The notes under the pieces were generated by a model. The model saw only the letters and a program-made list of their open reading frames with translations, was not told the DNA's origin and did no database searches. Below, in pieces: positions 1 to 45,098 of a stretch of 64,000 nucleotides of DNA. The translations under genes and the position numbers were made by a program. The stretch comes from Verrucomicrobiales bacterium (lineage in GTDB: Bacteria; Verrucomicrobiota; Verrucomicrobiia; Limisphaerales; J093): the NCBI GenBank assembly GCA_024233305.1, contig JACKPV010000023.1:590789-654788 (forward strand). Direction: 5' to 3'. Position 1 is the stretch's first letter, and each line of letters starts with the position of its first letter.

Positions 1-704
1 TGCCACAACGAAAACAACTGGCCCGTGGCCACCGGACAGGCCGGCGGCAGGGGCCGTTCATGGGCGGCCAGATGCGGCGGGAGTTGGGCCGCGCGCAGGT
101 GCTTCAAGGCCGCGGGCCCCAGCGCCCGGACCCAGAGTTGCTTGGGATGGGTGGTGTCGGTGTAGAAGTCCTGCCAGTCGCGCTGGCAGCCCCGGGTGGA
201 GCCGAGCCGTTGCCAGCCGGCGGCTTTGTAGCAGGTGCCCCGGAAGCGTTGCGGATCGACGAAGGTCTCGACCGCGAGCACGGGATGGCCGAAGTGCTGC
301 TGCCAGTCCTGGGCCAGACGTTCACAGCTGAGCTTCAACACGCGCGAGGCCAGATTGGGCCAGCGCCCCGGGGCGGCCAGGACCAGGAAGCGCTGGTTTT
401 GGGCCAGCAGATGGCGCCGGGCCGCCACCTCGCGGGCCGACCAATGCAGCCAGCGCTCGCGGGGCTTGAGGTGGAAGGCGGGCGAACAGAAGACCAGCAG
501 GGCCAGCCACTGCCCCTGAAACTCGGCCACATAGCGCAGGGCCTGGCCCACGGCGGTGGCGTTCTTGAGGTAGTGCCTGCGGCGGAGAAGGTCGTCGAAC
601 CGGGGGCGTTCGGATTCCTTGATGAGACGCACCTGGACCCCTTGGAGCAACTCGGGTTCCGGGGGCAGTCCCTGGCTCACCACGTTGGAAAGATGGACCG
701 ACAT
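1..704 (-). CDS. DUF4338-like protein, partial (runs off the left window edge); probable IS accessory gene
   Basis: Absent from the ORF track because there is no stop in the window. My translation of the minus strand from the ATG at 704 gives MSVHLSNVVSQGLPPEPELLQGVQVRLIKESERPRFDDLLRRRHYLKNATAVGQALRYVAEFQGQWLALLVF...HPVLAVETFVDPQRFRGTCYKAAGWQRLGSTRG. This is colinear with, and roughly 40 percent identical by eye to, the ORF at 36301..37212. Confidence 0.6.
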   Translation of the reverse strand, partial: MSVHLSNVVSQGLPPEPELLQGVQVRLIKESERPRFDDLLRRRHYLKNATAVGQALRYVAEFQGQWLALLVFCSPAFHLKPRERWLHWSAREVAARRHLLAQNQRFLVLAAPGRWPNLASRVLKLSCERLAQDWQQHFGHPVLAVETFVDPQRFRGTCYKAAGWQRLGSTRGCQRDWQDFYTDTTHPKQLWVRALGPAALKHLRAAQLPPHLAAHERPLPPACPVATGQLFSLW

Positions 705-715
705 GCCCGGAGTGA

Positions 716-1417
716 AGCAGGGGGAGGAGGGGGTGCCCAGAGAAATCGAACCAAATCTCTCCCTTCAAACCTCTTCCACGACTCCTTGACAACCGCCCTG
801 CTGGAATCGCAGAAGACCTCCTGAACGTATCGCTCGACAAGTCTGCGACCCTGGACGTCTGCCAAGCCAGCTCGCCGGGCTTCCTTTCCACGGTGGTGAC
901 CGCCCACGGCCAACCCATCGGCGTGCTCCACCTCGAACCGAGTCAGGACGACGGCTTCGACGCGTGGGACCGGCAGCTGCTGCGAGCGTTCACGGAGAAC
1001 ATTGCGATTGCCGTTCAGTCGATCAACTGGACCATGCCTCACTCCGCTCCTCCCGATTCGGCCAAGAGGTCCTTTGTACCCTCCTTGGGTGAAGCAGAGG
1101 GCCTTTACGAGTCCATTGTCGGACACCTGCCGGCAGTCATCTGGCGCCAGGATGCCAACCATCGCTTCACGTGGGTGAACGACAGGTTTTGCGGGGCGGA
1201 TGCCATGAGCCGCGAGCAGATCATCGGCAAGACAGACTTCGAGTTGCTTCTCCCGGAGAACGCCGAGCGATCCCGTGCTGGTGATGAGAAGACGATTTCG
1301 CAGGGGGAGTTCGAGGATCTCGAAGGACCATTCGCACGGCCCGGGGCGAGGATGGTTTTGCTTCCCAGCGACGGGCCGTTCGGCATACTCCCGGCACACA
1401 AGTCAGAAGCTGATCGT
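716..1417 (+). pseudogene. Orphan GAF-PAS sensor fragment (no plausible start, no output domain)
   Basis: The frame opens right after the stop at 713..715. It encodes a GAF C-terminus (LDVCQASSPGFLSTVVTAHGQPIGVLHLEPSQDDGFDAWDRQLLRAFTENIAIAVQ) and then a PAS core (LYESIVGHLPAVIWRQDANHRFTWVNDRFCGADAMSREQIIGKTDFELL). It runs in frame into the next gene, which has its own Met and signal peptide. Confidence 0.45.
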
Positions 1418-15527: not shown

Positions 15528-15615
15528 GGTGCGCATCTCAGCTCTTTCGGAGCGCGGAATTCATTCCGCAGCAAGGTTGACTCCCGGCGGGGTCTGCGGA
15601 GTGAATTCCGCGCTC

Positions 15616-17571: not shown

Positions 17572-17655
17572 CAACTCTTCGGGCCGCACGGAGTCGGAAA
17601 ACACTGAGATGCGCACGGTTTTGAGGTCGGTCGAACTGCGGGCTTGCTTCCTGTG

Positions 17656-20022: not shown

Positions 20023-20106
20023 GACCACCGAGCTTCCACGGGCGCGGCGCCGCGTCAAGTTCGGGCAGCCGGTGGACGCACGGCGGCGCGCATCCCGGCT
20101 TCTTCG

Positions 20107-22062
20107 ATAGGGGTAGGGATGACGGGATTAGCGCCACCCCTCCCTCCGAACCGTACGGGCGGATTTCCCGCATACGGCTCTCCGGTCAGTGGGGTCTCGG
20201 CGAGACTAACTGTAAGCGCGCGAGCCATGTTCCAGACTAAACAAGCCCTGCGCCGCAAACCAGCGGTTCGGCCAGCGTCGGCTGTCGGCTTCACTCAGCC
20301 CGTGTCCGGGCCGCTTCTCCCGCTTGCGCAGCAGCGCCCGCAAGCGGCGGCGCAGCCACCCATCCGGGCCACTCAGGCCCGTCGGGTAACTGTCCCGGAA
20401 GTAGCCGAGCCAACCCCGCAGGATCGGGTTCACTTTCGCGATGATTTCCCCCAGGCTTCGCCCGTTGGTCCGTCGCGTCAGCGGTCGCAACCGCTCCTGC
20501 AGCTTCTTGCGGCTCTTCTTCCGCGGCCATTTCTTCCCCCCGCGGAAGTGCCAGCCCAGGAAATCGAATCCCTCGTCGGTGGCGTTCACTATCCGGGTCT
20601 TGGTCGGGTGCAGGGTCAGCCCCGCTCCCGTGGTCCACTCCCGCAGATAGTCCAGCACCGTCTCGGCCGCTTCCCGGCTCCGGCACAGCACCACCAAATC
20701 ATCCGCATAGCGCACCATCGCCCAGCCCCGCCGTTCCATCTCCTGGTCCAACGGGTTGAGATACAGGTTCGCCAGGAGCGGACTGATCACGGCCCCCTGC
20801 GGGGTCCCGCGTTCGGTCGGCTGCCAGCCCTTGAGCGTTTCCAGCACGCCGGCCTTCAGGCATTGTTCCACCAGCGCCAGGACCCTGCCATCCACCACTC
20901 GCTGTTTGACCAACGCCATCAGTCCCTCATGCGGAATGGTGTCAAAGTAGCTCTTGAGGTCCGCGTCCACGCACCAGACGTAGCCTTGGCTCATCCACTC
21001 TTCCACCCTTCCCACCGCTTCCCGACAGCCACGTCCCGGTCGAAACCCATAGCTGCACTCGGCAAAGTCCCGCTCCAAGATCGGCTCCAGAACATTGCGC
21101 AAGGCCGCTTCCACGGTCCGGTCCCGCACCGCCGGGATGCCCAGCGGTCGCTTCTCGGTCGTGCCCATTTTCCCGATCCAGACGCGCCGCGCCGGTTGGC
21201 GGCGGTAGCTCCCGGTGCGCAATTCTTCCCCCAGGCGGGCCAATTCGCTCGTCCCCTGTTGGTCGAACTGTTGCACCGTTTGTCCATCCACTCCGGGAGC
21301 ACCCCGGTTCCGCCATACCGCGTGGAAAGCGGCCTGCAGGTTCCGCAGCGCGCAGACTTTGTCCCAGAGTCCGAACCATACCGTTGTCGACCCGCTTTGG
21401 GCGAGCCGCGTTAGCATCCGGTCCGTCCATACCGAACGTTGGATCCACCACCCAGGGGCGCGGACCTCTCCGGCTTGTTTAGCCTGGGTTGCCCCAGACA
21501 CTATCGCCGGTCGTTCTTGGCGTTCGTCGTTCGTCATGGTCGTTCCGTCTCCACTTCCCTGCGCCCCTTCGCTCCCCGGGCGTTACCCCGCTTCCTCGCT
21601 ACTATGGACGCTCTGACTCCCGCCGGGCGGCTCTTCGGACCTTGCGGCCATGAACACCGTTCTGTTCCCCGACGGGTCTCCCTGCTTCCTTCGCCCATGC
21701 TTCCCATCGTTCCGTCCCCAACCACCCCACCGCGCCAGTCCGGGCATTTGTCTCCATCCACTCTTCCTCTGCCGGGACCGCCAGCCAGAAGACCCGGTCG
21801 CCTGGTGCCGACCGAGGGAAGTCCTCCCACTTGGGTCATGGCCTGGGCTTCGCACAGCGCTCGCAGGCTCGCCGCTCGGCGTGGCCGAATCGGGTTCACA
21901 TGGCTTCGTTGTCTCACTTCGCTTCGTTACGGACCGATGGTTCACCTCCGGCAGCTCTCCACCCCGTGTTGCCACGACGCAGTAGCCTTCGGTCACAGGC
22001 GGGTGAATGAACCGCCTGACGAGGACTTTCACCTCGCAATATGGACGCCCTCACAGGCGCAC
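20107..22062 (-). mobile_element. Group II intron, copy 2 (1956 nt) in a decayed MITE
   Basis: Same ends and length as copy 1, on the minus strand. The 5' flank hairpin arm is CTGCGGAATGAATTCCGCGCTC. A degenerate terminus GCGCGCATCCCGG at 20086..20098 matches the MITE end at 10 of 13 positions. Confidence 0.9.
20206..21537 (-). CDS. Group II intron reverse transcriptase/maturase
   Basis: 443 aa. It matches the copy-4 RT except H to N in RRTNGRS. Relative to copy 1 it also has Q for P in KKLQERL. Confidence 0.92.
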   Translation of the reverse strand: MTNDERQERPAIVSGATQAKQAGEVRAPGWWIQRSVWTDRMLTRLAQSGSTTVWFGLWDKVCALRNLQAAFHAVWRNRGAPGVDGQTVQQFDQQGTSELARLGEELRTGSYRRQPARRVWIGKMGTTEKRPLGIPAVRDRTVEAALRNVLEPILERDFAECSYGFRPGRGCREAVGRVEEWMSQGYVWCVDADLKSYFDTIPHEGLMALVKQRVVDGRVLALVEQCLKAGVLETLKGWQPTERGTPQGAVISPLLANLYLNPLDQEMERRGWAMVRYADDLVVLCRSREAAETVLDYLREWTTGAGLTLHPTKTRIVNATDEGFDFLGWHFRGGKKWPRKKSRKKLQERLRPLTRRTNGRSLGEIIAKVNPILRGWLGYFRDSYPTGLSGPDGWLRRRLRALLRKREKRPGHGLSEADSRRWPNRWFAAQGLFSLEHGSRAYS

Positions 22063-22173
22063 GAGCGCGGAATTCATTCCGCAGCAAGCTTGACGGCCGG
22101 TGGGGCCAGCGGAATGAACCCCGTGCACCATTTCCCCAGCCGCCTCGGACTTGTGAAAAGCTGCGCCGTGACC

Positions 22174-23273: not shown

Positions 23274-24406
23274 ATGAACGCCGAAGCCAAAGCCAGCGAT
23301 TGTCCCGAGCGCGACATCTTCTTCGAAGCCATCGAAAAGGCATCGGAGGAAGAGCGCGCGGCGTACGTCGAGGTGGCCTGCGGCGAGGATGCGGCCCTGC
23401 GTCGGCGCGTCGAGGTCCTGCTGACCGACCATTCCGAGGACGACGAGTTCATGCGGACCCCGGTCGCGGAGATTGTGGCCCTGGATACACCCAACGCGGC
23501 AACACTGGAACAACCCGGCACCCTGATCGGCCGCTACCGGCTACTGGAACCACTCGGCGAAGGCGGGTTCGGCGTGGTCCATCTGGCGGACCAACAGGAG
23601 CCGATCCGCCGCCAGGTCGCCCTGAAGATCATCAAGCTGGGCATGGACACCCGGCAGGTCATCGCCCGCTTCGAGGCCGAGCGGCAGGCCCTGGCGATGA
23701 TGGACCATCCCAACATCGCCAAGGTGCTCGATGCCGGGGTCACGGAGACTGGACGTCCCTACTTCGTCATGGAACGGGTCCGGGGCATTCCGATCACGCG
23801 GTTCTGCGAGGAAAACCGACTCTCGATCGAGGGACGCCTCGAACTCCTCATCCCCGTCTGCCACGCCATCCAGCATGCCCACCAGAAGGTGATCATTCAC
23901 CGGGACATCAAGCCCTCGAACGTCCTGGTCACGGGCAGTCCCGATGGTTCGGGCCACCCGATGGTGATCGACTTCGGAGTCGCCAAGGCCATCGAGGAAC
24001 CGCTTACCGACAAGCCGCTCCACACCAGCCTGCTCCAGATGATCGGCACGCCGGCTTACATGAGCCCCGAGCAGGCCGAGCGGGGACCGGGCGGCGTCAG
24101 CGATGTGGACACCCGCAGCGACGTCTATTCGCTGGGCATCCTGCTTTATGAACTCCTCACCGGCACCACGCCTTTTCCCGAGGAACGGCTGCGAGAAGCC
24201 GGGTTCGCCGAGATTCAACGGATCCTCAGCCAGGAGGAACCGCAGCAGCCGTCCGCCCGCCTTGCGGAAATCCAGGGGAGCACACGCGCCCCCGCGTGTC
24301 CCCGACCGGCGCCCCCGCCGGTTGGCTCTGGAAAGGGGGCTGGGGCCGGAAGTGAAAACGGATTCGACGGGGGCGTCGAATCCTGCACGCGAGGGCGCGT
24401 GCGCTC
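23274..24406 (+). CDS. Ser/Thr protein kinase, exon 1 (interrupted by group II intron copy 3)
   Basis: Hanks kinase motifs present: GEGGFGVVHLA, VALKIIK, IIHRDIKPSNVLV, DFGVAKA, GTPAYMSPEQ and DVYSLGILLYELLTG. The ORF-track tail beyond 24406 reads into the intron. Confidence 0.85.
24278..24406 (+). repeat. 129-nt hairpin cluster inside the kinase ORF, immediately 5' of intron copy 3
   Basis: Four local hairpins with C4 or G-rich tetraloops: 24282..24299 (ACACGCG-CCCC-CGCGTGT), 24305..24322 (ACCGGCG-CCCC-CGCCGGT), 24360..24383 (GGATTCGACG-GGGG-CGTCGAATCC) and 24385..24402 (GCACGCG-AGGG-CGCGTGC). The outer 21 nt are also mutually complementary, with 2 mismatches. Confidence 0.7.
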
Positions 24407-26362
24407 GTGCGCCTGTGAGGGCGTCCATATTGCGAGGTGAAAGTCCTCGTCAGGCGGTTCATTCACCCGCCTGTGACCGAAGGCTACTGCGTCGTGGCAA
24501 CACGGGGTGGAGAGCTGCCGGAGGTGAACCATCGGTCCGTAACGAAGCGAAGTGAGACAACGAAGCCATGTGAACCCGATTCGGCCACGCCGAGCGGCGA
24601 GCCTGCGAGCGCTGTGCGAAGCCCAGGCCATGACCCAAGTGGGAGGACTTCCCTCGGTCGGCACCAGGCGACCGGGTCTTCTGGCTGGCGGTCCCGGCAG
24701 AGGAAGAGTGGATGGAGACAAATGCCCGGACTGGCGCGGTGGGGTGGTTGGGGACGGAACGATGGGAAGCATGGGCGAAGGAAGCAGGGAGACCCGTCGG
24801 GGAACAGAACGGTGTTCATGGCCGCAAGGTCCGAAGAGCCGCCCGGCGGGAGTCAGAGCGTCCATAGTAGCGAGGAAGCGGGGTAACGCCCGGGGAGCGA
24901 AGGGGCGCAGGGAAGTGGAGACGGAACGACCATGACGAACGACGAACGCCAAGAACGACCGGCGATAGTGTCTGGGGCAACCCAGGCTAAACAAGCCGGA
25001 GAGGTCCGCGCCCCTGGGTGGTGGATCCAACGTTCGGTATGGACGGACCGGATGCTAACGCGGCTCGCCCAAAGCGGGCCGACAACGGTATGGTTCGGAC
25101 TCTGGGACAAAGTCTGCGCGCTGCGGAACCTGCAGGCCGCTTTCCACGCGGTATGGCGGAACCGGGGTGCTCCCGGAGTGGATGGACAAACGGTGCAACA
25201 GTTCGACCAACAGGGGACGAGCGAATTGGCCCGCCTGGGGGAAGAATTGCGCACCGGGAGCTACCGCCGCCAACCGGCGCGGCGCGTCTGGATCGGGAAA
25301 ATGGGCACGACCGAGAAGCGACCGCTGGGCATCCCGGCGGTGCGGGACCGGACCGTGGAAGCGGCCTTGCGCAATGTTCTGGAGCCGATCTTGGAGCGGG
25401 ACTTTGCCGAGTGCAGCTATGGGTTTCGACCGGGACGTGGCTGTCGGGAAGCGGTGGGAAGGGTGGAAGAGTGGATGAGCCAAGGCTACGTCTGGTGCGT
25501 GGACGCGGACCTCAAGAGCTACTTTGACACCATTCCGCATGAGGGACTGATGGCGTTGGTCAAACAGCGAGTGGTGGATGGCAGGGTCCTGGCGCTGGTG
25601 GAACAATGCCTGAAGGCCGGCGTGCTGGAAACGCTCAAGGGCTGGCAGCCGACCGAACGCGGGACCCCGCAGGGGGCCGTGATCAGTCCGCTCCTGGCGA
25701 ACCTGTATCTCAACCCGTTGGACCAGGAGATGGAACGGCGGGGCTGGGCGATGGTGCGCTATGCGGATGATTTGGTGGTGCTGTGCCGGAGCCGGGAAGC
25801 GGCCGAGACGGTGCTGGACTATCTGCGGGAGTGGACCACGGGAGCGGGGCTGACCCTGCACCCGACCAAGACCCGGATAGTGAACGCCACCGACGAGGGA
25901 TTCGATTTCCTGGGCTGGCACTTCCGCGGGGGGAAGAAATGGCCGCGGAAGAAGAGCCGCAAGAAGCTGCAGGAGCGGTTGCGACCGCTGACGCGACGGA
26001 CCCACGGGCGAAGCCTGGGGGAAATCATCGCGAAAGTGAACCCGATCCTGCGGGGTTGGCTCGGCTACTTCCGGGACAGTTACCCGACGGGCCTGAGTGG
26101 CCCGGATGGGTGGCTGCGCCGCCGCTTGCGGGCGCTGCTGCGCAAGCGGGAGAAGCGGCCCGGACACGGGCTGAGTGAAGCCGACAGCCGACGCTGGCCG
26201 AACCGCTGGTTTGCGGCGCAGGGCTTGTTTAGTCTGGAACATGGCTCGCGCGCTTACAGTTAGTCTCGCCGAGACCCCACTGACCGGAGAGCCGTATGCG
26301 GGAAATCCGCCCGTACGGTTCGGAGGGAGGGGTGGCGCTAATCCCGTCATCCCTACCCCTAT
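24407..26362 (+). mobile_element. Group II intron, copy 3 (1956 nt), inside the kinase ORF in sense orientation
   Basis: Same GTGCGCC...CCCCTAT ends and length as the other copies, anchored by conserved internal ORF offsets. Confidence 0.9.
24932..26263 (+). CDS. Group II intron reverse transcriptase/maturase
   Basis: 443 aa. It matches the copy-4 RT except S to P in LAQSGPTTVW. Confidence 0.92.
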   Translation: MTNDERQERPAIVSGATQAKQAGEVRAPGWWIQRSVWTDRMLTRLAQSGPTTVWFGLWDKVCALRNLQAAFHAVWRNRGAPGVDGQTVQQFDQQGTSELARLGEELRTGSYRRQPARRVWIGKMGTTEKRPLGIPAVRDRTVEAALRNVLEPILERDFAECSYGFRPGRGCREAVGRVEEWMSQGYVWCVDADLKSYFDTIPHEGLMALVKQRVVDGRVLALVEQCLKAGVLETLKGWQPTERGTPQGAVISPLLANLYLNPLDQEMERRGWAMVRYADDLVVLCRSREAAETVLDYLREWTTGAGLTLHPTKTRIVNATDEGFDFLGWHFRGGKKWPRKKSRKKLQERLRPLTRRTHGRSLGEIIAKVNPILRGWLGYFRDSYPTGLSGPDGWLRRRLRALLRKREKRPGHGLSEADSRRWPNRWFAAQGLFSLEHGSRAYS

Positions 26363-28136
26363 CCCGGAGGATGTCACGCTCGGTTTCAAGGTTCCCACCG
26401 ACCTCGACTGGATCGTGCTCAAGGCCATCGACAAGGACCGCAACCGCCGCTACGTCACCCCCAACGAACTGGCCGATGACCTCAGGCGTTTCCTCAAGAA
26501 CGAGCCCATCCTCGCCCGTCCTATCAGCCAGACCGCCAGAGTGTGGCGCTGGTGCCGACGTCACACGGCGGTCGCAGCCCTGACTGCCGGCTTGGTCCTG
26601 GCGCTGATCGCCGGCTTTGGCGGTACTCTCTGGCAGTTGCAGCGGGCGGAACAAAATGCTGCCGAGAACCTCCGCCAAGTCGCCCGGTTGAACGTCCTCA
26701 CCGGCGTCAACCTCCTGCAGGAAGGCGACTCCTTCAAGAGCCTGCTCTGGTTCGCCGAAGCCCTGGCGCTGAAGGCCGGGCCGCCCGAACGCGACGTCGT
26801 GGATCGGCTCCGCATCGCTTCCATCATCGCGCAAGGGCCGCGACTCGCCGCCGTCATCACCCACGACGGCCAACCCGTTGCCGACGCCGCCTTTCATTCC
26901 ACGAAGGATCAACTCGCCACCGTGGGACGCGACCGTCGCCTGCGCCTCTGGGACCTTGCCACCGTCGAGACAGTGTTCCTGACCGAACCCTTTGCCGAAC
27001 GTCCTTCCGAGGTCCTCTTCTCACCCGACGGCGAAGTGATCCTGGTGGGCAGCTCCGAGTTCAACCAGGTGCGCATGATCTCCGCGTTGGATGGCAAGCC
27101 GCTGAGCAACACCATCCCTCACTTTGCCGGCGGGGCGAACAACCGCCCGCTGCCACCACGCTTCGATGCTTTAGGTGAACGCCTTCTCACCCAAAGCGCA
27201 CCGAAAACACTTCGAGTCTGGGCTGTGCGCGACGGCTCCCCGCTCGGCCCGTCGATCCCGCTCGGCGCCCCGGTCGCGTGGACGGGCTTCAGCGAACATG
27301 GCACGCAAGTTCGGACGGTCACTCAGGACGGGAAGGCGACGACTTGGGATTGGCGAAGTGGAAGCCGGATATCGAACCCAGAACCCCGAACGCTGAATAT
27401 CGAAGGCGAGCCCAACTTCGACGTTGGACGTTCAGTGTTCGACATTCGAAGTTCGACTTCAGTCCGCAGCCCCGACGGCTCCCGCTACGCCACCCTTGCC
27501 GCCGATCACCGCGTGCGTGTCTGGGACTCGGGAACCGACGAACCGCTCACACCTCCCATCGACCATTTCACGGCGTCCGGCCCCGTCGGTTTCAGCGCCA
27601 ATGGCCGGTTCTTCTTCACGATGCACCCGGCCCATGCGGTGTACGTTTGGGAACTTCCGGAGAATACCGAACCGCCAGTCCTGCTCCGGCCCGAGGCCCC
27701 GAACACTCTGGCGGAGACTGGCCGGGACGGTTCGGTCATTGTGACCCGTGATCCGGGCAGCCCGATTCGCGTGCGGGCCCTGTCGGGTACCCAGGAAGTG
27801 TCCCTCCATCCCGCCAGCCTGAAGGAAGTTCCCGTGCAGGCATGGTTCGATGACACCGGCCAGTTCATCATCCTCGAATACCCGAACCAGCGTGCTCAGG
27901 TCTGGGATGCCACCTCCGGTCTGCCTGTCACTCCCGTGTTCCGGAGCCGCTACGCCACCAATGAAGCCGCCTACCGGACGATCCAGTTTCCTGATTTCCC
28001 ATCTGACACTCGCCACTCGCCGCCGCAGGCCCTGGCCGAACTCCTCTCCGGCAGCCGCCTCGACGGCACCGGCGGTTGGAAGCCGCTCGAACTGGGCGAC
28101 ATCCTCGCGCGCTGGAATGCTGTCAATCGCGAATAG
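26363..28136 (+). CDS. Ser/Thr protein kinase, exon 2 (juxtamembrane segment, TM helix, WD40-like beta-propeller)
   Basis: It resumes with PEDVTLGFKVPTDLDWIVLKAIDKDRNRRYVTPNELADDLRRFL, the typical post-catalytic segment of PVC kinases. It continues with the TM helix AVAALTAGLVLALIAGFGGTLW and WD-like repeats (RLRLWDLAT, TLRVWAV, HRVRVWDSGT, AVYVWEL, RAQVWDATS). Confidence 0.85.
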
Positions 28137-35313: not shown

Positions 35314-35712
35314 CTACCAGAGAGTCCTGGCATGCGGGTAGTTGCTGATCAACTGATCCTTCGAGATGATCGTTGCGTTTTCCTCTCTGGCTGTCGCGAC
35401 GATGATTTGGTCCGCCGGATCGTCGTGAAAAGGCTGGGGGAGAATGGTCGATCGGTAAGCAATCGCCGGGGTGAGAGGGACCAGGCGGAGTTTCGGCATT
35501 CGCAGGGCCTCCGACATCCACTCCTCCGGGTCACAGGAAATGCCGATGCGTTTCTTCTCAAGCAGTTTGCAGAACTCCCACGCCGAAATGGCAGATAACA
35601 GGAGCTCTGAGTCGCCTTCCGCGTTCTCCATGGCTGCGCGGGCCTTGCGCGACAGCTTCTTTGGCGACATGTTCCACCAAACCCAGGCATGAGTATCAAG
35701 GAGGTACTTCAT
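35314..35712 (-). CDS. PIN-domain toxin (VapC-like)
   Basis: MKYLLDTHAWVWW...ELLLSAISAWEF...FHDDPADQIIVATAREENATIISKD carries the acidic PIN residues. The start overlaps the antitoxin stop (35709..35712). Confidence 0.85.
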   Translation of the reverse strand: MKYLLDTHAWVWWNMSPKKLSRKARAAMENAEGDSELLLSAISAWEFCKLLEKKRIGISCDPEEWMSEALRMPKLRLVPLTPAIAYRSTILPQPFHDDPADQIIVATAREENATIISKDQLISNYPHARTLW

Positions 35713-35936
35713 CGGCACACGTTCCACACCGTCTCCCCAAGAGGGCTGACAATGTCTTCCTCGAACACGAGGGCTGCCGCAAGGTGGCCCGGAGTTGGTG
35801 TGGTTTCGGTGTAAGGGACGACTTCCACGAGCGGTCGGCCCCGCTTCGTCACGACGACCCGTTCCTTGCGCGCCGCAACGTCACCGAGCACCTGCAAAGC
35901 GTGGGCCTTGAAGTCCGTGATGGCCATTGTCTTCAT
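35709..35936 (-). CDS. Phd/YefM-type antitoxin
   Basis: MKTMAITDFKAHALQVLGDVAARKERVVVTKRGRPLVEVVPY is a typical Phd/YefM N-terminus. It is translationally coupled to the PIN gene. Confidence 0.8.
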   Translation of the reverse strand: MKTMAITDFKAHALQVLGDVAARKERVVVTKRGRPLVEVVPYTETTPTPGHLAAALVFEEDIVSPLGETVWNVCR

Positions 35937-36300
35937 ACGAGAGATCTACAGTCGAACGCCGGCAGGGTAGTCATTTCAAGTGGTCATGTCAAACGACGGG
36001 TCGCTCTGGAGAAAAGAGAGGCCGGTCCTGAAGGCGGACACTGGTCTGCTCAGCGGTCATCCCCTGCGCTTGTGCCGGTCCTGGGGCAACAGGCTCGACG
36101 CCTTCGTCCACGCTTCCCTGGGCAGCCTTTCAGCCAGCCGCTTCAGCCTCATCGTGGGCTCCTGCGGCAGTCTGTGGCGTGCGCATCTCAGTTTTTTCAC
36201 AGCGAGGGAGAAATGGTGGTGTGAACGAAGCGCCACCGGCTGAAAAATAGTGTCATTTTAGACGGGACTCTGATCCTCCCCTTCGCCATAGTCCGCGGGC

Positions 36301-37212
36301 GTGACGGAGTGCGAAGTGATTCAAGGCCGGCGGATGGGCCCCGGGGATCTGACCCAGGTCAAGGACCTCCTGGCCCGGCATCCGGACTGGAGCCGATACC
36401 GTTTGAGCCGGGAACTGGCGCAGTTGTGGGCGTGGCGCAGCGCGGCGGGCCAACTCAAGGACATGGCCGCCCGGAGCCTGCTGCTCAAGCTCGAGCAGCG
36501 CGGCTGGATCACCCTGCCACCCTGCCGCTGGGCCTCGCCCAACCGGATGCGCCACAAACGCCCGCCCTCCCTGCCAGCGTCGTTCCATCCGGAGCCGCTA
36601 CCGGGCCCCTTGTCGGCGCTGCGACCGCTCAAGCTCAGCGAAGTCAGTGCCGGACCGGCGACCGAGCGGGCCCTGTTTGAAGGGTTGCTGCACCGCTATC
36701 ACTATCTGAGCCACCGCAGCCCGGTAGGGGAGAACCTCCAGTATTTGGTGCGGGAACGGGCCGGGCGACCGGTGGCCTGCCTGCTCTTTGGCGCGGCGGC
36801 TTGGCAGTGCGCCGATCGCGACCGCCACATCGGCTGGGATCGCGCCACGCGGGCGGCCCAGCTTCCTCTGATCGCCAACAACACGCGCTTCCTGATCCTG
36901 CCTTGGATTGGCGTGCCGGGACTCGCCAGCCATCTCCTGGCCCGCGTCAGCCGCCGGGTCCGGGCCGACTGGCAGCGCAAGTACGGGCACCCGGTTTATC
37001 TGCTGGAGACCTTTGTCGAGACCGGGCGTTTCGCCGGCACCTGTTATCGCGCGGCCAACTGGCAACGCGTTGGTCAGACCAAAGGTCGTAGCCGGCAGGA
37101 CTCCCCGGAGGGCGGAGCGCTGCAGGTCCCTCGCAAAGACGTCTATCTCTACCCGCTGATTCCCCGCTACGCCGAACGCTTGCGGGCAGTCCCCAACCCC
37201 ACCCATCCATGA
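36301..37212 (+). CDS. DUF4338-domain protein (IS accessory ORF)
   Basis: YHYLSHRSPVGENLQYLVRERAGRPVACLLFGAAAWQCADRDRHIGW...FLILPWIGVPGLASHLL...GHPVYLLETFVETGRFAGTCYRAANWQRVGQTKGR. The stop overlaps the transposase start (ATGA at 37209). Confidence 0.75.
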   Translation: MTECEVIQGRRMGPGDLTQVKDLLARHPDWSRYRLSRELAQLWAWRSAAGQLKDMAARSLLLKLEQRGWITLPPCRWASPNRMRHKRPPSLPASFHPEPLPGPLSALRPLKLSEVSAGPATERALFEGLLHRYHYLSHRSPVGENLQYLVRERAGRPVACLLFGAAAWQCADRDRHIGWDRATRAAQLPLIANNTRFLILPWIGVPGLASHLLARVSRRVRADWQRKYGHPVYLLETFVETGRFAGTCYRAANWQRVGQTKGRSRQDSPEGGALQVPRKDVYLYPLIPRYAERLRAVPNPTHP

Positions 37213-37836
37213 GCCCAGAAATCCCCCCCTCCGTTCCTCGCCGCTCCCGCCGACCCCACGTTAAAGTCCGCCGCGAGCAGCGCCGCCAAGCCCAAGAACA
37301 ACAACCCCTCACCGAGGAGATCCTGACGGCGGGCCAGGCGGCGGCGCAAGCCGCTGCCACCCTCTCCCAAGTGTGCCTCACCGAGGCCGAAGTGGCCGCC
37401 TGGCGCCAGGACCTGGAAAAGCGACTGGCCAGCCTCCAGGAGCACCCCGAACAGAACCTGGGCTTCATCGAGGAGCAACTCGCCCTGGCCAGCCGGGAAT
37501 CCATCCGCCTGCTGGCCGAGCGGGCCGCCCAGGCCAAGGCCAACGCCACCCCTTGCCAGTGCCTCACCTGCCAGCAACCCCTGCGGCGGCAGCGCTATCT
37601 GGCCCGCACCATCGAGTCGCGCTTCGGCCCCTTGCGGGTGTTCCGCAACTACGGCTGGTGCCCCAAGTGCGACGCGTGGCAGTTCCCGGCCGATCCCGCC
37701 TTGGCATTGAGTCGCCATGCCCCCGCTTCCCCCTATGTCCAGGAGATGGCCGCGCTGCTGGTAAGCAAAATGCCCCCCGAGCAGGCCGTGCCGGTGGCCC
37801 AACGCATGGGACTCCAACTCTCCCGCTGCACCCTCG
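37209..37836 (+). pseudogene. ISKra4-family transposase, N-terminal fragment (split by the IS21-like insertion)
   Basis: It carries the Zn-finger-like CQCLTCQQPLRRQRYLARTIESRFGPLRVFRNYGWCPKCDAWQFPAD. The reading frame continues exactly at 41709 once 37837..41708 is removed. Confidence 0.75.
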
Positions 37837-37949
37837 TGCGTAGCGACAATTAAAACTTTCCAGTGACGATTATCGGATTGGCGGTGGTTTGGGGATGATG
37901 AGGCGGCGGCCCCGCCCGAGGCCAGAAGGCCTCGGGGGGGCTGCCGCGA

Positions 37950-38460
37950 ATGATCACCAAACAACATTACCGAAAACTGATGAGCGAGTATCAAGAGACT
38001 GGAAACGTGAGCGTGAGCGCCATGAAGGCGGGGATGAGCCGGCCGACGGCGCAGAAGTATCTGAAGGCGGGTCAACCGCCGCAGGAACTTCAAGGGAAGC
38101 ACACTTGGCGGACGCGGGAGGATCCTTTGGAGGAGATCTGGCCGCAGGCTTTGGTGATGCTTGAGGAGAGCCCGGATCTGGAGGCGAAGGCTCTCTTCGA
38201 ATACCTGGGGGAACGGTCGCCGTGGGCGGTGCAGGAGAAGCAACTGCGGACCTTTCAGCGGCGGGTCAAGGTGTGGCGTCTGCAACATGGGCCGGACAAG
38301 GAGGTCTTTTTTCCTCAGGACTGGGAAGCCGGACGGGCGATCCAGTTGGACTGGACCAATGCGAACGAGCTGGCGGTGACTATCAGCGGGCAGCCATACG
38401 AGCACCAGCTTTGCCACTGCGTGTTGCCCCATTCCAACTGGGACTGGGCCACCCGGTGTT
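37950..38460 (+). pseudogene. istA: IS21-family transposase IstA, N-terminal fragment
   Basis: The HTH N-terminus is MITKQHYRKLMSEYQETGNVSVSAMKAGMSRPTAQKYLK. It is intact to ...HSNWDWATRC and then runs into the IS3-like left end. Confidence 0.75.
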
Positions 38461-38520
38461 TGGATCTCCCCCGATTTCGTGGACAGGGAGGGCGCAGTCA
38501 GCGAAGAAAGACCGACTGAC

Positions 38521-38853
38521 ATGCCCAAAACCAGACCTGCCTACACCGAAGAGTTCCGCCAGCAGGCGGTCCAACTGCTCCTGGACAGCGGTCGCCCCCT
38601 GGACCGGGTGGCCGCCGAACTGGGCGTCTCCGCCAACTCCCTCCGTTCCTGGCGGGACCGTTCCCTGGGCCGGGGGCGTGGAGCGCAGGCCCCTTCGACG
38701 CAGTCGAAGGGCCGGAGCGCAACGCCCCCGGCCCACGCCGCCGAGCAGATCCGCCAGCTCCACCGCGAGGTCCAATACCTCCGCCGCCAGCGCGACATCC
38801 TAAAAAAAGCCATGAGCATACTGGCCGGGGAACCGCAGGGCAGTATGCACTGA
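38521..38853 (+). CDS. IS3-family OrfA (HTH + leucine-zipper-like)
   Basis: MPKTRPAYTEEFRQQAVQLLLDSGRPLDRVAAELGVSANSLRSWR...QLHREVQYLRRQRDILKKA. Confidence 0.85.
   Translation: MPKTRPAYTEEFRQQAVQLLLDSGRPLDRVAAELGVSANSLRSWRDRSLGRGRGAQAPSTQSKGRSATPPAHAAEQIRQLHREVQYLRRQRDILKKAMSILAGEPQGSMH
38802..38808 (+). promoter_or_regulatory. A7 slippery run, candidate programmed -1 frameshift site for the OrfAB fusion
   Basis: AAAAAAA followed by G lies within orfA. The -1 frame is open from here (KKSHEHTGRGTAGQYALIDQLRSHFPL) into orfB, as is usual for the IS3 family. Confidence 0.55.
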
Positions 38854-38861
38854 TCGATCAA

Positions 38862-39728
38862 TTGCGGTCCCACTTTCCCCTCACCGAGCTCTGTGATGCC
38901 CTCGCCGTTTCCCGCTCCGGTTACCACGCCTCCCGCCGCCGCCAGCCCGGGCCCCGCGCCCGCCAGCAGGTGGTCCTGCTCCAGGCCATTGAGAAGGTCC
39001 GCGCCCATCGCCATGCCCGCTGTTACGGCAGTCCCCGGATGACTCATCAACTCCGTCGCCAGGGCCATCAGGTCTCCGAGAACCGTGTCGCCCGCCTCAT
39101 GCGCGCCAACCACCTGCGCGCCCGGCCCCGGCGTCCCTACCGACCCAAGACCACCCAGCCCGACCACGCTGCCTGTCCCTCCCCCAACCTCCTGGCCAGC
39201 GCGCCCGCCCCTACCGCCCCAGGCCAGCAACTGGTCAGCGACATCACCTACATTCCCACCGCCGAGGGCTGGCTCTACCTGGCCCTGGTCGTGGATCGTT
39301 TCAGCCGCAGCGTCTTTGGCTGGCACTTGGCCGACTCCCTTCACGCGGACCTGGTTTGCCACGCCCTGGACCACGCCCACCGCACCGGCCTGATCGGCCC
39401 CCAAGCGATCTTCCACTCCGATCGGGGCTGCCAATACACCGCCGCCCTCCTGCGCGGCCAACTCGCCCGCCTGGGCCTGCGCCAGAGCATGAGCGCCCGA
39501 GGGCATTGCTATGACAACGCCATGGCCGAAAGCGTCTTTGCCGCTCTCAAGGCCGAGGCCCTGCCCCCCGAGCAGCCCTTCGCCTCCCGGGCCCTGGCCC
39601 GCAGCGCCCTCTTCGACTACCTCGAAACCTTCTACAACCGCCAGCGCCTGCACAGTTCGCTCGGCTACCGGCCACCCCGAGAATTCCTGGATCTCTACTT
39701 CCAAACCCACCCTCTTGCACTACACTGA
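38862..39728 (+). CDS. IS3-family OrfB (DDE integrase core)
   Basis: VSDITYIPTAEGWLYLALVVDRFSRSVFGW, IFHSDRGCQYTA and HCYDNAMAESVFAALKAE give the D, D, E context. It is probably expressed as OrfAB by a frameshift at 38802..38808. Confidence 0.88.
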   Translation: MRSHFPLTELCDALAVSRSGYHASRRRQPGPRARQQVVLLQAIEKVRAHRHARCYGSPRMTHQLRRQGHQVSENRVARLMRANHLRARPRRPYRPKTTQPDHAACPSPNLLASAPAPTAPGQQLVSDITYIPTAEGWLYLALVVDRFSRSVFGWHLADSLHADLVCHALDHAHRTGLIGPQAIFHSDRGCQYTAALLRGQLARLGLRQSMSARGHCYDNAMAESVFAALKAEALPPEQPFASRALARSALFDYLETFYNRQRLHSSLGYRPPREFLDLYFQTHPLALH

Positions 39729-39781
39729 ACTCAACAAAACCCTGCGCCCCGCCTGTCCACTTTTTCGGGGGAAGACCAGTT

Positions 39782-40770
39782 TGTCGGAGTCGCTGCTGTC
39801 CTGCCGCCAGGGGCTCCAGGAAGCGCTGCAGCGCTTGGGCAAGGTGCCGCGGGAACTGCGGGTGGACAACAGCAGCGCGGCGACACACCGCGTCGGTGGC
39901 GGCGGGACGGGGCGTGAGTTCAATGAGCAGTTCGCCTCGCTCTGCGCCCATTACGGGCTGGTGCCGCGCACCATCGGGATCGACCGTCCCAACGAGAACG
40001 GGGATGTCGAGTCGAGCAACGGACATCTGAAGCGGCGCTTGCGGCAGCACTTGCTCTTGCGCGGCAGCCGGGACTTCGAGTCGGAAACGGCCTACGAGCG
40101 ATTCCTGGAGCAGGTGTTGGAGCGTGGCAATCGAAGCCGGCAGGAGAAGGTGGCCGCCGAGTTGGCGGTGATGAAGCCGCTGCCGCCGACGCGGTTGAGC
40201 GAGTATGACGAACTGACCTGCACCGTTGGGATGGCCAGCACGATTCGGGTCAAGAAGGTGGGCTACTCGGTGCCGGCGCGCTTGATTGGCCAAGAGCTCA
40301 AAGTGGAGGTGTACGAGCGCGAGCTCAGGCTCTACAGCGGGCGGGAGTTGTTGCTGGTTCTACCGCGCCAGGGTGGAGATCGGGGTGTGGTGCTCGATTA
40401 CCGCCACGTAATTGACCATCTGTTGCGCAAGCCCGGGGCCTTCGAGCGGTATCGCTATCGGGAGCAGTTGTTTCCCAGCCGGTCGTTTCGGCAAGCGCAC
40501 GATCACCTGGTCGGCAAACACGGTCAGCGTGGTGGCGCGGTCGAGTATTTGCGGTTGCTGAAGTTGGCCAGTGAGGTGGGCGAGAGCGACATCGAAGTGA
40601 TGCTGGCCGATTATCTGACCCCGCCTTATCCGGCCTGGAGTGTTCAGGAACTACGACGCCTCTTGCAGCCCGAGTCCCGGCCGGTGATCGAGCTGATCGA
40701 ACTGCAGCCGGAGTGCCATTCGTATGACGCGCTGTTGAGTCCAGAAACGGAGGTGGCCCATGCCGGCTGA
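39782..40770 (+). pseudogene. istA: IS21-family transposase IstA, C-terminal fragment
   Basis: It resumes with SESLLSCRQGLQEALQRLGKVPRELRVDNSSAATH...PNENGDVESSNGHLKRRL, the DDE region of IstA. Confidence 0.75.
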
Positions 40771-41608
40771 AGGACTGACGGTGCTCTTGCGCGCCTTCCG
40801 CCTGCCGACCATGGCGGCGATTTGGTCGGAGAGTGTCATCCGCGCTGAGCGGGAAGACTGGGGCTACCAACGGTTGCTGCAGCATCTGTGCGAGAGCGAG
40901 GCCCAGGATCGGCGTGAGCGCAAGGTGCAACGGTTGCTCCACGAATCCGGACTGCCGGAGGGCAAGACCCTGGGCAACCTGGAGGAGAAGTTGCTGCCGG
41001 TGAAGATCCGACGGTTGCTGCCGACGCTCCTGGAGGGCCGGTTTGTCGACCGCGGGGAAAACCTGCTGGTCTTTGGTTTGCCCGGGCGTGGCAAGACGCA
41101 CTTCTTGGCGGCGGTGGGCCGCGAGTTGGTTTTGCGTCATCGTTACCCGGTCCTGTTCACCCCGACGTTCAAGCTGGTGCAACGGTTGCTGGCCGCGAAG
41201 CAGGAACTGCGTTTGGAGAGCGAGCTCAAACGGCTGGATCGCTTTGCCGCCGTGATTTTGGACGATATCGGCTACGTGCAGCAGGATCGGCAGGAGATGG
41301 AGGTTCTCTTCACCTTCCTGGCGGAGCGCTATGAGCGGCGCAGCGTGCTGATCAGCAGCAATTTGGTCTTCTCCAAATGGGACCAGATTTTCAAGGACCC
41401 GATGACGACGATGGCGGCGATCGACCGTTTGGTGCATCACGCCACGATCCTGGAGTTCAACAACGAGAGCGTACGCGGGCAGCAGGCGCGCGGTCGGCAG
41501 AAGGGCCAGGCCGACGCACCCGAAGGCCCCTTCGGCTCCACTCCGTCTTTGGCGCCTGACGGCGCCAAAGACTCCGTTCCGCCGAAGGGGCCTTCCCCCC
41601 AAGACTAA
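40760..41608 (+). CDS. istB: IS21-family helper ATPase IstB
   Basis: Walker A is GLPGRGKTH and Walker B is AVILDDIGY. ISSNLVFSKW...DRLVHHATILEF is also present. Confidence 0.88.
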   Translation: MPAEGLTVLLRAFRLPTMAAIWSESVIRAEREDWGYQRLLQHLCESEAQDRRERKVQRLLHESGLPEGKTLGNLEEKLLPVKIRRLLPTLLEGRFVDRGENLLVFGLPGRGKTHFLAAVGRELVLRHRYPVLFTPTFKLVQRLLAAKQELRLESELKRLDRFAAVILDDIGYVQQDRQEMEVLFTFLAERYERRSVLISSNLVFSKWDQIFKDPMTTMAAIDRLVHHATILEFNNESVRGQQARGRQKGQADAPEGPFGSTPSLAPDGAKDSVPPKGPSPQD

Positions 41609-41708
41609 CCCTGGAGAACAGGTGAGGAGAGGAGGATTTCATCCCTGAGCCACTGGCAAAAAATAGTTGTCGCCGGTGCAAAGGAATAATTGTCGTTGAC
41701 CACCCTCG

Positions 41709-42676
41709 ACCGGGAGGCGCATCGCCAGGGCCTGCGGGCCCAGAGCTTGCGGGCCGCCCACTTGAGCCAACTCGACACCTCGGAGCAACTCCAAGGCTTG
41801 GTGGCCGGCCGCGAGGGGCCGCCTTCCCAGCCCTTCACCCTGGTCATTGAAATTGACGCGTGGAACATCCGCGAACGCGACCACTGGGGACAGACCGAGG
41901 CGTTGCGCGCCCAGGGCGAGAAACTCTCCCGCTGGCACTGGGTTTACGTGGGCACTGTCTTCCGTCTCGATCATCGCGCCCAAACCGCCGGGGGCCGACC
42001 GCTCATCAGCCAGCGGGCCTATGCCGTCACCCGCGGCGGCGTCGAGGCGCTGATCCGGCAGATCTACTACGAAGCCTTACGCCTCGGGATGGGGCAGGCC
42101 CAGGAGGTGCTGGTCATCGCCGACGGGGCCCTCTGGATTTGGAAGGCGGTGGCGGATCGTTTTCCCGATGCCCGCCAACGGCTCGACCTCTATCACGGCG
42201 AGGAACATCTCTGGGCTGTCGCTCGCGAGCTTTACGGCCAGGGCACGCCTGAAGCCCGGGCCTGGGTTGTCCCGCTGCTTGAACAGCTCCGCCGCGACGA
42301 GAGCCCCGCACTCATCCGGAGCCTGAAGGAACTCCAGCCCCGCCTGACCGAAAGCCTGCAGGAAAAGGTGCAGCAGCAAATCGACTACTTCGACAACAAC
42401 GCCCACCGCCTCCAATACCGGGACATCCTCCGCGCCCGCAAGGCCGTGAAGGAAGGAAATGCCACGGCCGCCCAGATCCGCAAAGCCAACGAACCCTTGG
42501 GCTCAGGCGCCATCGAATCGACCTGCCGCCAGTATCAGTGTCGTTTCAAACGCACCGGCCAGTTCTGGTCCACCGCCGGTGACGAGGCCCTGATGGGCTT
42601 GGAGACCTTCTGGCGCAACGGTCGCTGGCACGAGCTCTTCCCCCACGCCGAACTCACCTCCCCTCACCTCAACTAA
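41709..42676 (+). pseudogene. ISKra4-family transposase, C-terminal fragment
   Basis: DREAHRQGLRAQ...IEIDAWNIRERDHWGQ...VLVIADGALWIWKAVADRFPDARQRLDLYHGEEHLW...FWSTAGDEALMGLETFWRNGRW is the DDE region typical of ISKra4-type transposases. Confidence 0.75.
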
Positions 42677-43015
42677 ACACCCCACACCCTGGACCGCATC
42701 CCCTCCCGCCAAAAACCTGAGATGCGCACGTCTGTGGCCGGCGGTCTGGTGGTTGAAGAATCTGACAGATTAGAAGTTGATGACACGGCTTCCATGGCGT
42801 TCTCTTCCGAGGATTCCTCCAAAACCCCTTCTTCCTTCTTCGGGATACGCTTCTCGGGCGGCGCGCCGATCCTCATGTTCCAAAGAGTCGCGACAAAAGT
42901 GAAAGTGCGCATCTCAGTGTTTTCCGACTCCGTGCGGCCCGAAGAGTCGGAGCGCGGAATTCATTCCGCAGACCCCGCCGGGAGTCAACCTTGCTGCGGA
43001 GTGAATTCCGCGCTC

Positions 43016-44971
43016 GTGCGCCTGTGAGGGCGTCCATATTGCGAGGTGAAAGTCCTCGTCAGGCGGTTCATTCACCCGCCTGTGACCGAAGGCTACTGCG
43101 TCGTGGCAACACGGGGTGGAGAGCTGCCGGAGGTGAACCATCGGTCCGTAACGAAGCGAAGTGAGACAACGAAGCCATGTGAACCCGATTCGGCCACGCC
43201 GAGCGGCGAGCCTGCGAGCGCTGTGCGAAGCCCAGGCCATGACCCAAGTGGGAGGACTTCCCTCGGTCGGCACCAGGCGACCGGGTCTTCTGGCTGGCGG
43301 TCCCGGCAGAGGAAGAGTGGATGGAGACAAATGCCCGGACTGGCGCGGTGGGGTGGTTGGGGACGGAACGATGGGAAGCATGGGCGAAGGAAGCAGGGAG
43401 ACCCGTCGGGGAACAGAACGGTGTTCATGGCCGCAAGGTCCGAAGAGCCGCCCGGCGGGAGTCAGAGCGTCCATAGTAGCGAGGAAGCGGGGTAACGCCC
43501 GGGGAGCGAAGGGGCGCAGGGAAGTGGAGACGGAACGACCATGACGAACGACGAACGCCAAGAACGACCGGCGATAGTGTCTGGGGCAACCCAGGCTAAA
43601 CAAGCCGGAGAGGTCCGCGCCCCTGGGTGGTGGATCCAACGTTCGGTATGGACGGACCGGATGCTAACACGGCTCGCCCAAAGCGGGTCGACAACGGTAT
43701 GGTTCGGACTCTGGGACAAAGTCTGCGCGCTGCGGAACCTGCAGGCCGCTTTCCACGCGGTATGGCGGAACCGGGGTGCTCCCGGAGTGGATGGACAAAC
43801 GGTGCAACAGTTCGACCAACAGGGGACGAGCGAATTGGCCCGCCTGGGGGAAGAATTGCGCACCGGGAGCTACCGCCGCCAACCGGCGCGGCGCGTCTGG
43901 ATCGGGAAAATGGGCACGACCGAGAAGCGACCGCTGGGCATCCCGGCGGTGCGGGACCGGACCGTGGAAGCGGCCTTGCGCAATGTTCTGGAGCCGATCT
44001 TGGAGCGGGACTTTGCCGAGTGCAGCTATGGGTTTCGACCGGGACGTGGCTGTCGGGAAGCGGTGGGAAGGGTGGAAGAGTGGATGAGCCAAGGCTACGT
44101 CTGGTGCGTGGACGCGGACCTCAAGAGCTACTTTGACACCATTCCGCATGAGGGACTGATGGCGTTGGTCAAACAGCGAGTGGTGGATGGCAGGGTCCTG
44201 GCGCTGGTGGAACAATGCCTGAAGGCCGGCGTGCTGGAAACGCTCAAGGGCTGGCAGCCGACCGAACGCGGGACCCCGCAGGGGGCCGTGATCAGTCCGC
44301 TCCTGGCGAACCTGTATCTCAACCCGTTGGACCAGGAGATGGAACGGCGGGGCTGGGCGATGGTGCGCTATGCGGATGATTTGGTGGTGCTGTGCCGGAG
44401 CCGGGAAGCGGCCGAGACGGTGCTGGACTATCTGCGGGAGTGGACCACGGGAGCGGGGCTGACCCTGCACCCGACCAAGACCCGGATAGTGAACGCCACC
44501 GACGAGGGATTCGATTTCCTGGGCTGGCACTTCCGCGGGGGGAAGAAATGGCCGCGGAAGAAGAGCCGCAAGAAGCTGCAGGAGCGGTTGCGACCGCTGA
44601 CGCGACGGACCCACGGGCGAAGCCTGGGGGAAATCATCGCGAAAGTGAACCCGATCCTGCGGGGTTGGCTCGGCTACTTCCGGGACAGTTACCCGACGGG
44701 CCTGAGTGGCCCGGATGGGTGGCTGCGCCGCCGCTTGCGGGCGCTGCTGCGCAAGCGGGAGAAGCGGCCCGGACACGGGCTGAGTGAAGCCGACAGCCGA
44801 CGCTGGCCGAACCGCTGGTTTGCGGCGCAGGGCTTGTTTAGTCTGGAACATGGCTCGCGCGCTTACAGTTAGTCTCGCCGAGACCCCACTGACCGGAGAG
44901 CCGTATGCGGGAAATCCGCCCGTACGGTTCGGAGGGAGGGGTGGCGCTAATCCCGTCATCCCTACCCCTAT
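43016..44971 (+). mobile_element. Group II intron, copy 4 (1956 nt)
   Basis: Same ends and length as the other copies. It is inserted after the hairpin at 42950..43015. Confidence 0.9.
43541..44872 (+). CDS. Group II intron reverse transcriptase/maturase
   Basis: 443 aa. This is the apparent consensus of the four copies. It has one synonymous difference near 43670 (ACA versus ACG). Confidence 0.92.
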   Translation: MTNDERQERPAIVSGATQAKQAGEVRAPGWWIQRSVWTDRMLTRLAQSGSTTVWFGLWDKVCALRNLQAAFHAVWRNRGAPGVDGQTVQQFDQQGTSELARLGEELRTGSYRRQPARRVWIGKMGTTEKRPLGIPAVRDRTVEAALRNVLEPILERDFAECSYGFRPGRGCREAVGRVEEWMSQGYVWCVDADLKSYFDTIPHEGLMALVKQRVVDGRVLALVEQCLKAGVLETLKGWQPTERGTPQGAVISPLLANLYLNPLDQEMERRGWAMVRYADDLVVLCRSREAAETVLDYLREWTTGAGLTLHPTKTRIVNATDEGFDFLGWHFRGGKKWPRKKSRKKLQERLRPLTRRTHGRSLGEIIAKVNPILRGWLGYFRDSYPTGLSGPDGWLRRRLRALLRKREKRPGHGLSEADSRRWPNRWFAAQGLFSLEHGSRAYS

Positions 44972-45098
44972 CGAAAAAGCTGAGATGCGCACAAAGTGAA
45001 ACAGCGGTCTTGGTTTTTTGGCGTGGGGCACATAAGCTCTGGTCATTGAACCCGAGGACAGCGCCCGGCGCGTCTGACCGATTGAAAGCACATATTCC

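Follow-up and report, generated by a model that had tools for sequence, protein, structure and literature searches.

Three nested insertion sequences in a Verrucomicrobiales genome, each flanked by its own target duplication

Introduction

How did three insertion sequences (ISs) come to lie one inside the other in a single stretch of bacterial DNA, and can the order of their arrival be read from what is left? The question is raised by a window of 64,000 nucleotides (nt) from a Verrucomicrobiales bacterium (GenBank assembly GCA_024233305.1, contig JACKPV010000023.1, forward-strand positions 590,789 to 654,788), which is the whole stretch of DNA analysed here and to which all positions below refer. 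An IS3-family element lies within istA of an IS21-family element, which itself lies within the transposase gene of an outer, ISKra4-like element, all three on the same strand. Nested insertion sequences are a familiar result of transposition into neutral targets, and this nest is a well-preserved, unusually tidy case of that known phenomenon: as a product of ordinary transposition it does not represent a system of a new kind, and each of the three elements adds a new member to a known family. A literature search on nested insertion sequences in bacteria returned nothing citable.

Structure of the nest and order of insertion

Three successive and independent transpositions, first of the outer ISKra4-like element, then of the IS21 element and last of the IS3 element, are very probably the best explanation of the stack. 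A script check of the coordinates found the elements, inverted repeats and flanking direct repeats of the triple nest as originally predicted, except at the right end of the IS21 element (see below). Each layer is flanked by its own target duplication, of 9 bp for the outer element, 6 bp for IS21 and 3 bp for IS3; at the 65% G+C of the window such a flanking match would arise by chance with a probability of about 9e-6, 4e-4 and 0.02, respectively, and because each length is typical of its family the duplications support three successive insertions. Excision redone in silico rejoins the two interrupted genes; the products, an IstA of 499 aa and a transposase of 531 aa, read through the junctions with exactly the peptides that had been predicted, and both restored elements are collinear with intact relatives.

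The proposed history has three steps. A 2679-bp, two-gene ISKra4-like element (Mutator-type DDE) would have entered an intergenic stretch beside a PIN/Phd toxin-antitoxin pair, producing a 9-bp duplication; a 2545-bp IS21 element carrying istA and istB would then have entered codon 210 of the outer transposase gene, with a 6-bp duplication; finally, a 1318-bp IS3 element (orfA/orfB, with a predicted −1 frameshift on A7G) would have entered codon 171 of istA, within the catalytic core, with a 3-bp duplication. The nest had been said to fix this order of events, which is a slight overstatement: the order outer, IS21, IS3 is the most parsimonious one and is not strictly proven, because transposase supplied in trans can move a defective element whose ends are intact, as happened to the miniature inverted-repeat transposable elements (MITEs) described below.

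As they stand, the outer and IS21 elements are probably unable to make their own transposase and would be immobile unless complemented in trans, and the IS3 element is probably still autonomous. The insertions look recent, since neither of the two interrupted genes has decayed and the copies of IS3 are identical. The nest is thus a clean, datable record of transposon-on-transposon insertion, which leaves the understanding of transposition unchanged. It separates the elements that are live in this Verrucomicrobiales lineage, namely IS3 (multicopy, with identical copies) and a group II intron (four copies in 64 kb), from the IS21-like and ISKra4-like copies, which are dead. It is also of use for annotation, as PGAP labels the fragments "hypothetical protein", "transposase" and "ATP-binding protein", and makes a good teaching example.

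Restored genes and element ends

The restored IstA reads as an uninterrupted 499 aa across the IS3 insertion in codon 171 (junction ..WATRCLSESLLSCRQG..; ..HSNWDWATRCLSESLLSCRQG..), carries rve and Mu-transposase C-terminal domains and scores 194.8 bits against the NF033546 profile (cut-off 160); IstB scores 228 bits against NF038214 (cut-off 200). A metagenome scan for relatives of the IS21 element returned 80 loci, mostly with a 499-aa IstA; the matches cover residues 1-499 and reach 94% identity, and the restored length is shared with 66 intact homologues. The restored element aligns end to end (1..2543) with intact metagenomic copies, for example at 91.4% identity with locus L074 and 81.8% with L090, and with many others. 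The restored IstA junction is gapless against intact relatives, and the junction peptide is identical to that of four of the loci (L074, L076, L077 and L078).

The restored outer transposase is likewise uninterrupted over its 531 aa (junction ..LSRCTLDREAHRQG..), with the IS21 insertion in codon 210. More than 3000 homologues were found in a protein search, the full-length ones being 526-534 aa long and the best 85% identical. Relatives of the whole element came from a scan of one genome per species, in which the best match was 77% and the intact relatives were mostly from Verrucomicrobiota. The restored element aligns over 1..2679 with one of these, L001, an intact 2697-bp element with 77% protein identity and its own 9-bp duplication (CTTGAGCTG); another relative, L003, also has a 9-bp duplication (GCCCTGATG). 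The region of the IS21 insertion site is gapless against L001, L002 and L003, and against the more distant L154 there is one gap, ~38 bp downstream of the junction. The two termini of the outer element share GTGCGCATCTCAG (13/13 positions identical, 18/20 overall), and the same terminal 13-mer stands at the ends of the intact relatives L001, L002 and L045, with a one-base difference in the ends of L003.

In alignment with homologues both broken genes are free of decay, their losses at conserved columns falling within the range of intact controls. The restored IstA keeps 240 of 244 conserved columns, where controls miss 0-15. In the restored transposase 210 columns are kept out of 212 that reach 95% conservation or more among 114 full-length homologues, where intact controls miss 0-8.

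The right end of the IS21 element is where we depart from the original prediction, which gave 37837..41700 with an 8-bp duplication (CACCCTCG). The left end and the presence of that repeat stand; the right end and the duplication length do not. With the end at 41700 the two ends fail to align as inverted repeats, and with the end at 41702 TGCGTAGCGACAATTA is set against TGGTCAACGACAATTA. All 13 intact relatives inspected end in ...GACCA (...GTTGACCA; ...TTGTCGTTGACCA), and of the relatives in which both flanks can be read, five have a duplication of 6 bp, one of 7 bp and one of 5 bp. The 8-bp duplication was therefore rejected in favour of the 6-bp CCCTCG, with the element ending at 41702. On this comparison the CA counted into the longer repeat is the terminus of the element itself, matched by chance in the left flank. 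The excision product is the same with either end (an element of 2543 vs. 2545 bp). Two GCGACAATTA-like motifs are present at each end, as expected of IS21-type ends.

The innermost element has kept both of its frames. A slippery A7 run at 38802..38808 is followed by G, reading CTA AAA AAA G at 38800..38809 in the orfA frame, and with the frameshift modelled there the fused OrfAB matches NF033516 at 378.7 bits (cut-off 160), the match running unbroken through that frameshift from residue 11 to residue 389. The 288-aa OrfB occurs on 22 contigs from other public runs. Eight of the 10 contigs read hold a complete IS3 element at 99.8-100% identity; in these eight copies the similarity starts no more than 3 bp from 38461, and in nearly all it stops no more than 4 bp from 39778. 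For OrfA and for OrfB, NCBI lists four or more accessions each, besides near-identical variants. The GTT duplication is supported beyond chance because removing one copy restores istA gaplessly.

Junctions in public records and alternative explanations

The proteins of the nest are present in NCBI in two sets. The first consists of MCP5516651.1 (the DruA-like protein of the outer element, identical), MCP5516652.1 (a 214-aa transposase fragment), the accessions of the same series ending in 54 and 55 (IS3 OrfA and OrfB) and MCP5516657.1 (IstB, identical). The second (MCP5524876, 77, 79 and 80) has the first four proteins at the same spacing, and no second IstB. The 214-aa truncated transposase, which has two NCBI accessions and retains the CxxC...CxxC region, ends in residues read from the IS21 end and so marks the outer/IS21 junction in both sets, and the right IS3/istA junction also occurs on a contig from another public run (L171). 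Duplications could not be read in most short-read metagenome and Logan contigs, where the flanks are chimeric at repeats.

These records bear on whether the nest is real. The source is a metagenome-assembled genome (MAG), IS3 is a multicopy element, and chimerism at IS3 ends is plain to see in other public contigs, all of which would suit a contig misjoined at repeats. Such a mis-join, however, would not yield three exact duplications of family-typical lengths (3, 6 and 9 bp), nor would it restore two reading frames gaplessly. As the outer/IS21 junction stands in two NCBI records and the IS3/istA junction in another run, the nest is not a one-off assembly chimera, and an assembly artefact is very unlikely.

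A second alternative is that the nest was formed elsewhere and that the whole 6.5-kb composite, or the IS21 and IS3 unit, was then moved here by a transposase acting in trans. All three elements have intact ends, the MITEs with the same termini show that this type of transposase has mobilised elements in trans in this genome, and the DruA-like protein and the truncated transposase fragment have two NCBI accessions each, all of which would allow such a move. Against it, a collection of 5.8 billion proteins holds neither the exact restored IstA nor the exact restored transposase, and no intact transposase at least 90% identical to the restored outer one (the best is 85%); IstB has a single accession, with no other NCBI member in its 90% cluster. 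No intact near-identical sibling of the outer or the IS21 element thus seems to be visible, subject to the incompleteness of MAGs, and this apparent lack argues against mobilisation in trans. The second accession set, without IstB, is most simply read as this locus in a sister assembly, where the contig would be broken within the multicopy IS3. Taken together, a move of the ready-made composite is unlikely. A contig index searched with the exact sequences of IstB, of the DruA-like protein, of the intron reverse transcriptase (RT) and of a further protein, P0121, gave no match.

Some points weigh against three successive insertions at this site as we read them. The 3-bp GTT duplication is weak evidence on its own, the ISKra4 model score of the outer transposase is below the NCBI curated cut-off, and the second accession set might come from another copy of the nest in the genome, which would imply that the composite moved after nesting.

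Table 1. Positions of the three nested elements, their parts and related features in the window

Feature	Position	Strand	Remarks
Outer ISKra4-like element	36179..42729		6551 bp with insertions, 2679 bp restored; ends and 9-bp duplication
Left 9-bp target duplication, GTCTGTGGC	36170..36178		identical to 42730..42738; chance ~9e-6
Right 9-bp target duplication, GTCTGTGGC	42730..42738		
Left terminal inverted repeat of outer element, GTGCGCATCTCAGTTTTTTC	36179..36198	+	first 13/13 bp identical to right end, 18/20 overall
Right terminal inverted repeat of outer element	42710..42729	-	
DruA/DUF4338-like gene, 303 aa, intact	36301..37212	+	PF14236, E 1.8e-34; stop overlaps transposase ATG (ATGA)
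Outer transposase gene, 5' part	37209..37836	+	codons 1-209 plus 1 nt; tblastn match to residues 1-211; cut by IS21
Outer transposase gene, 3' part, to stop codon	41709..42676	+	
IS21-family element	37837..41702	+	3866 bp; 2545 bp without IS3; TG...CA ends
Left IS21 target duplication, CCCTCG	37831..37836		originally predicted 8-bp version starts at 37829
Right IS21 target duplication, CCCTCG	41703..41708		
istA, 5' part	37950..38460	+	codons 1-170 plus 1 nt
istA, 3' part, to stop codon	39782..40770	+	
istB, intact, 282-aa AAA+ helper ATPase	40760..41608	+	NF038214 228 bits; PF01695, E 8e-56
IS3-family element, intact, 1318 bp	38461..39778	+	TGG...CCA; 20/27 terminal positions match between ends
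Left IS3 target duplication, GTT	38458..38460		
Right IS3 target duplication, GTT	39779..39781		
IS3 orfA	38521..38853	+	
IS3 orfB frame, -1 relative to orfA	to 39728	+	
132-bp MITE with 1956-nt group II intron	42905..44992	+	intron 43016..44971; 13-bp termini of outer element; 9-bp duplication AAAGTGAAA
Second copy of 132-bp MITE with intron	15529..17616	-	intron 15616..17571 (+); 9-bp duplication GGTTTTGAG
Further group II intron copy	20088..22129	-	decayed MITE-like context, right arm 17/21
Further group II intron copy	24401..26363	+	after a different short hairpin, GCACGCG...CGCGTGC, and shared GCTC

Relation to known families

The assignments of the three layers to IS3, IS21 and an ISKra4-like group hold on profile scores. 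The IS3 element has a profile match above its cut-off, a predicted −1 frameshift on an A-run, imperfect TG...CA repeats and a duplication within the 3-5 bp of its family, and resembles IS3, IS911 and IS150 in its predicted frameshift fusion, its rve-type DDE core, its TG...CA ends, its 3-bp duplication and its length of 1.3 kb. It differs in being a new sequence and in the linker of its orfA, which holds a 70-nt imperfect palindrome (38666..38735) in coding DNA, in the linker region of OrfA. A separate IS3 protein from a sister MAG (P0258, MCP5528015.1) begins with residues read from an IS3 right end, a sign of further self-nesting.

For IS21, both profiles are matched, the TG...CA ends carry multiple subterminal repeats and the duplication lies within the 4-8 bp of the family; the pair and order of istA and istB, the 6-bp duplication and the length of ~2.5 kb are likewise those of known members. 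The window copy is unlike them in its inactivation by IS3 within istA and in the C-terminal tail of IstB, which is encoded by an imperfect palindrome of 74 nt (41522..41595) in coding DNA.

The outer transposase is matched by far best by NF033572 (ISKra4; E 1.2e-55, 189.3 bits), short of the curated cut-off of 205, for which reason "ISKra4-like" is the accurate label; the next-best model is ISLre2 with 57 bits, and the Pfam family UPF0236 was passed. Among prokaryotic Mutator-like elements, the ISKra4 family has terminal repeats of 18-39 bp in which the final cytosine is conserved, and its duplications measure 8 or 9 bp (Guerillot et al. 2014, PMC3942029). The window element is like the ISKra4 group of p-MULT 4 in that work in its best profile, in a duplication of 9 bp and in terminal repeats of ~20 bp with a final C (...GCGCAC), and differs in its score (189 vs. 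205) and in a conserved, translationally coupled DUF4338/GNAT first gene. Four ISKra4 elements with unspecified extra genes and one with a group II intron RT have been described (PMC3942029).

Part of the group inserts 13-17 bp upstream of sigma-A promoters (PMC3942029), and such promoter targeting is not evident at the window element: scans of this one insertion found no sigma-70-type promoter adjoining the element ends, a consensus that may not apply to Verrucomicrobiota. A host open reading frame (ORF) split by the outer element was also sought by removing the IS together with the neighbouring MITE; none was convincing, and the site is treated as intergenic on that ground. A PIN-domain toxin and Phd/YefM antitoxin pair lies at 35314..35936 (-), ~240 bp before the left end of the outer element, and the stretch from this pair to an aldo/keto reductase gene at 45099 has gathered both the nest and a MITE.

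A DruA-like gene coupled to the outer transposase

The original prediction was silent on the first gene of the outer element, which encodes a DruA-like protein and whose stop overlaps the transposase start by 4 nt. An AlphaFold model of the protein (predicted local distance difference test, pLDDT, 77) has an N-terminal domain resembling a winged helix-turn-helix (wHTH) and a C-terminal GNAT fold, and the top Foldseek matches in the PDB are all acetyltransferases; this agrees with published work that assigns DUF4338 to the GNAT domains (PMC10853773). Every closer relative sampled (L001, L002, L003, L017, L038, L045 and L154-L165) has this gene pair, again overlapping by 4 nt, and more distant relatives (at most 51% identity) lack it. 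Both proteins belong to families with thousands of members.

In the sense of a defence protein this is not a DruA. With DruA of Druantia type I it has the Pfam domain PF14236 and the GNAT fold in common, but its gene lies inside an insertion sequence, its neighbours are a transposase gene and the element ends, and DruB-E are missing. As the DruA profile of PADLOC also gave only 13.5 bits (E 0.007), the protein shares a domain with DruA and is not part of a Druantia system.

No paper was found that describes a pairing of DUF4338 with a transposase or of DruA with ISKra4; the literature gave the GNAT assignment and the general description of ISKra4 elements. Tentatively, the window element might belong to an abundant and apparently undescribed two-gene ISKra4-like clade, in which a wHTH-GNAT gene is translationally coupled to the transposase and the GNAT protein serves as an accessory or regulator, a reading we put forward as possible but rather doubtful. 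If it were true, the signature domain of Druantia type I would have a transposon-borne sister lineage. The conserved DUF4338/GNAT gene is the most interesting by-product of the analysis and its only lead of wider reach.

A second DUF4338/DruA-like ORF (Pfam E 2.2e-17) occupies 1..704 (-), where the left edge of the window cuts it off; its identity to residues 121-302 of the first is 40%, and it has no N-terminal wHTH part. A contig in the relatives L162/L163 shows the order DruA-like gene, truncated transposase, DruA-like gene, full transposase, a sign of further self-nesting.

MITEs and group II introns

The GTGCGCATCTCAG termini occur six times in the window, at the ends of the outer element and of two 2088-bp units, each a 132-bp sequence that contains a group II intron, which the original prediction had also passed over. 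With the intron removed, the 132-bp units are best taken as MITEs derived from the outer element, being short and non-coding and sharing its termini and duplication length. In each, arms of 43 nt and 21 nt, in that order, flank a near-perfect palindrome of ~66 nt, and the MITE folds at −82 kcal/mol. The outer element holds the sole transposase gene in the window that matches the MITEs; that this gene is dead had been proposed from the start and was borne out, and no other ISKra4-like transposase gene was found in the window.

The intron has the domain V/VI RNA match (RF00029, 57.6 bits against a threshold of 40, four times in the window), the RT-maturase ORF (RVT_1 and GIIM) and, in GTGCG...TAT, the GUGYG...AY boundaries of a group II intron. 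Since the MITEs are oppositely oriented whereas the intron is on the + strand in both, it entered opposite strands of the MITE, each time following GCGCTC at the 3' base of the hairpin. The MITE seems to offer a near-perfect palindrome that the intron may have invaded on either strand. This intron-in-MITE arrangement is a lesser by-product than the DUF4338/GNAT gene. The two further intron copies in the window (Table 1) are 99-99.9% identical to the intron in the MITEs.

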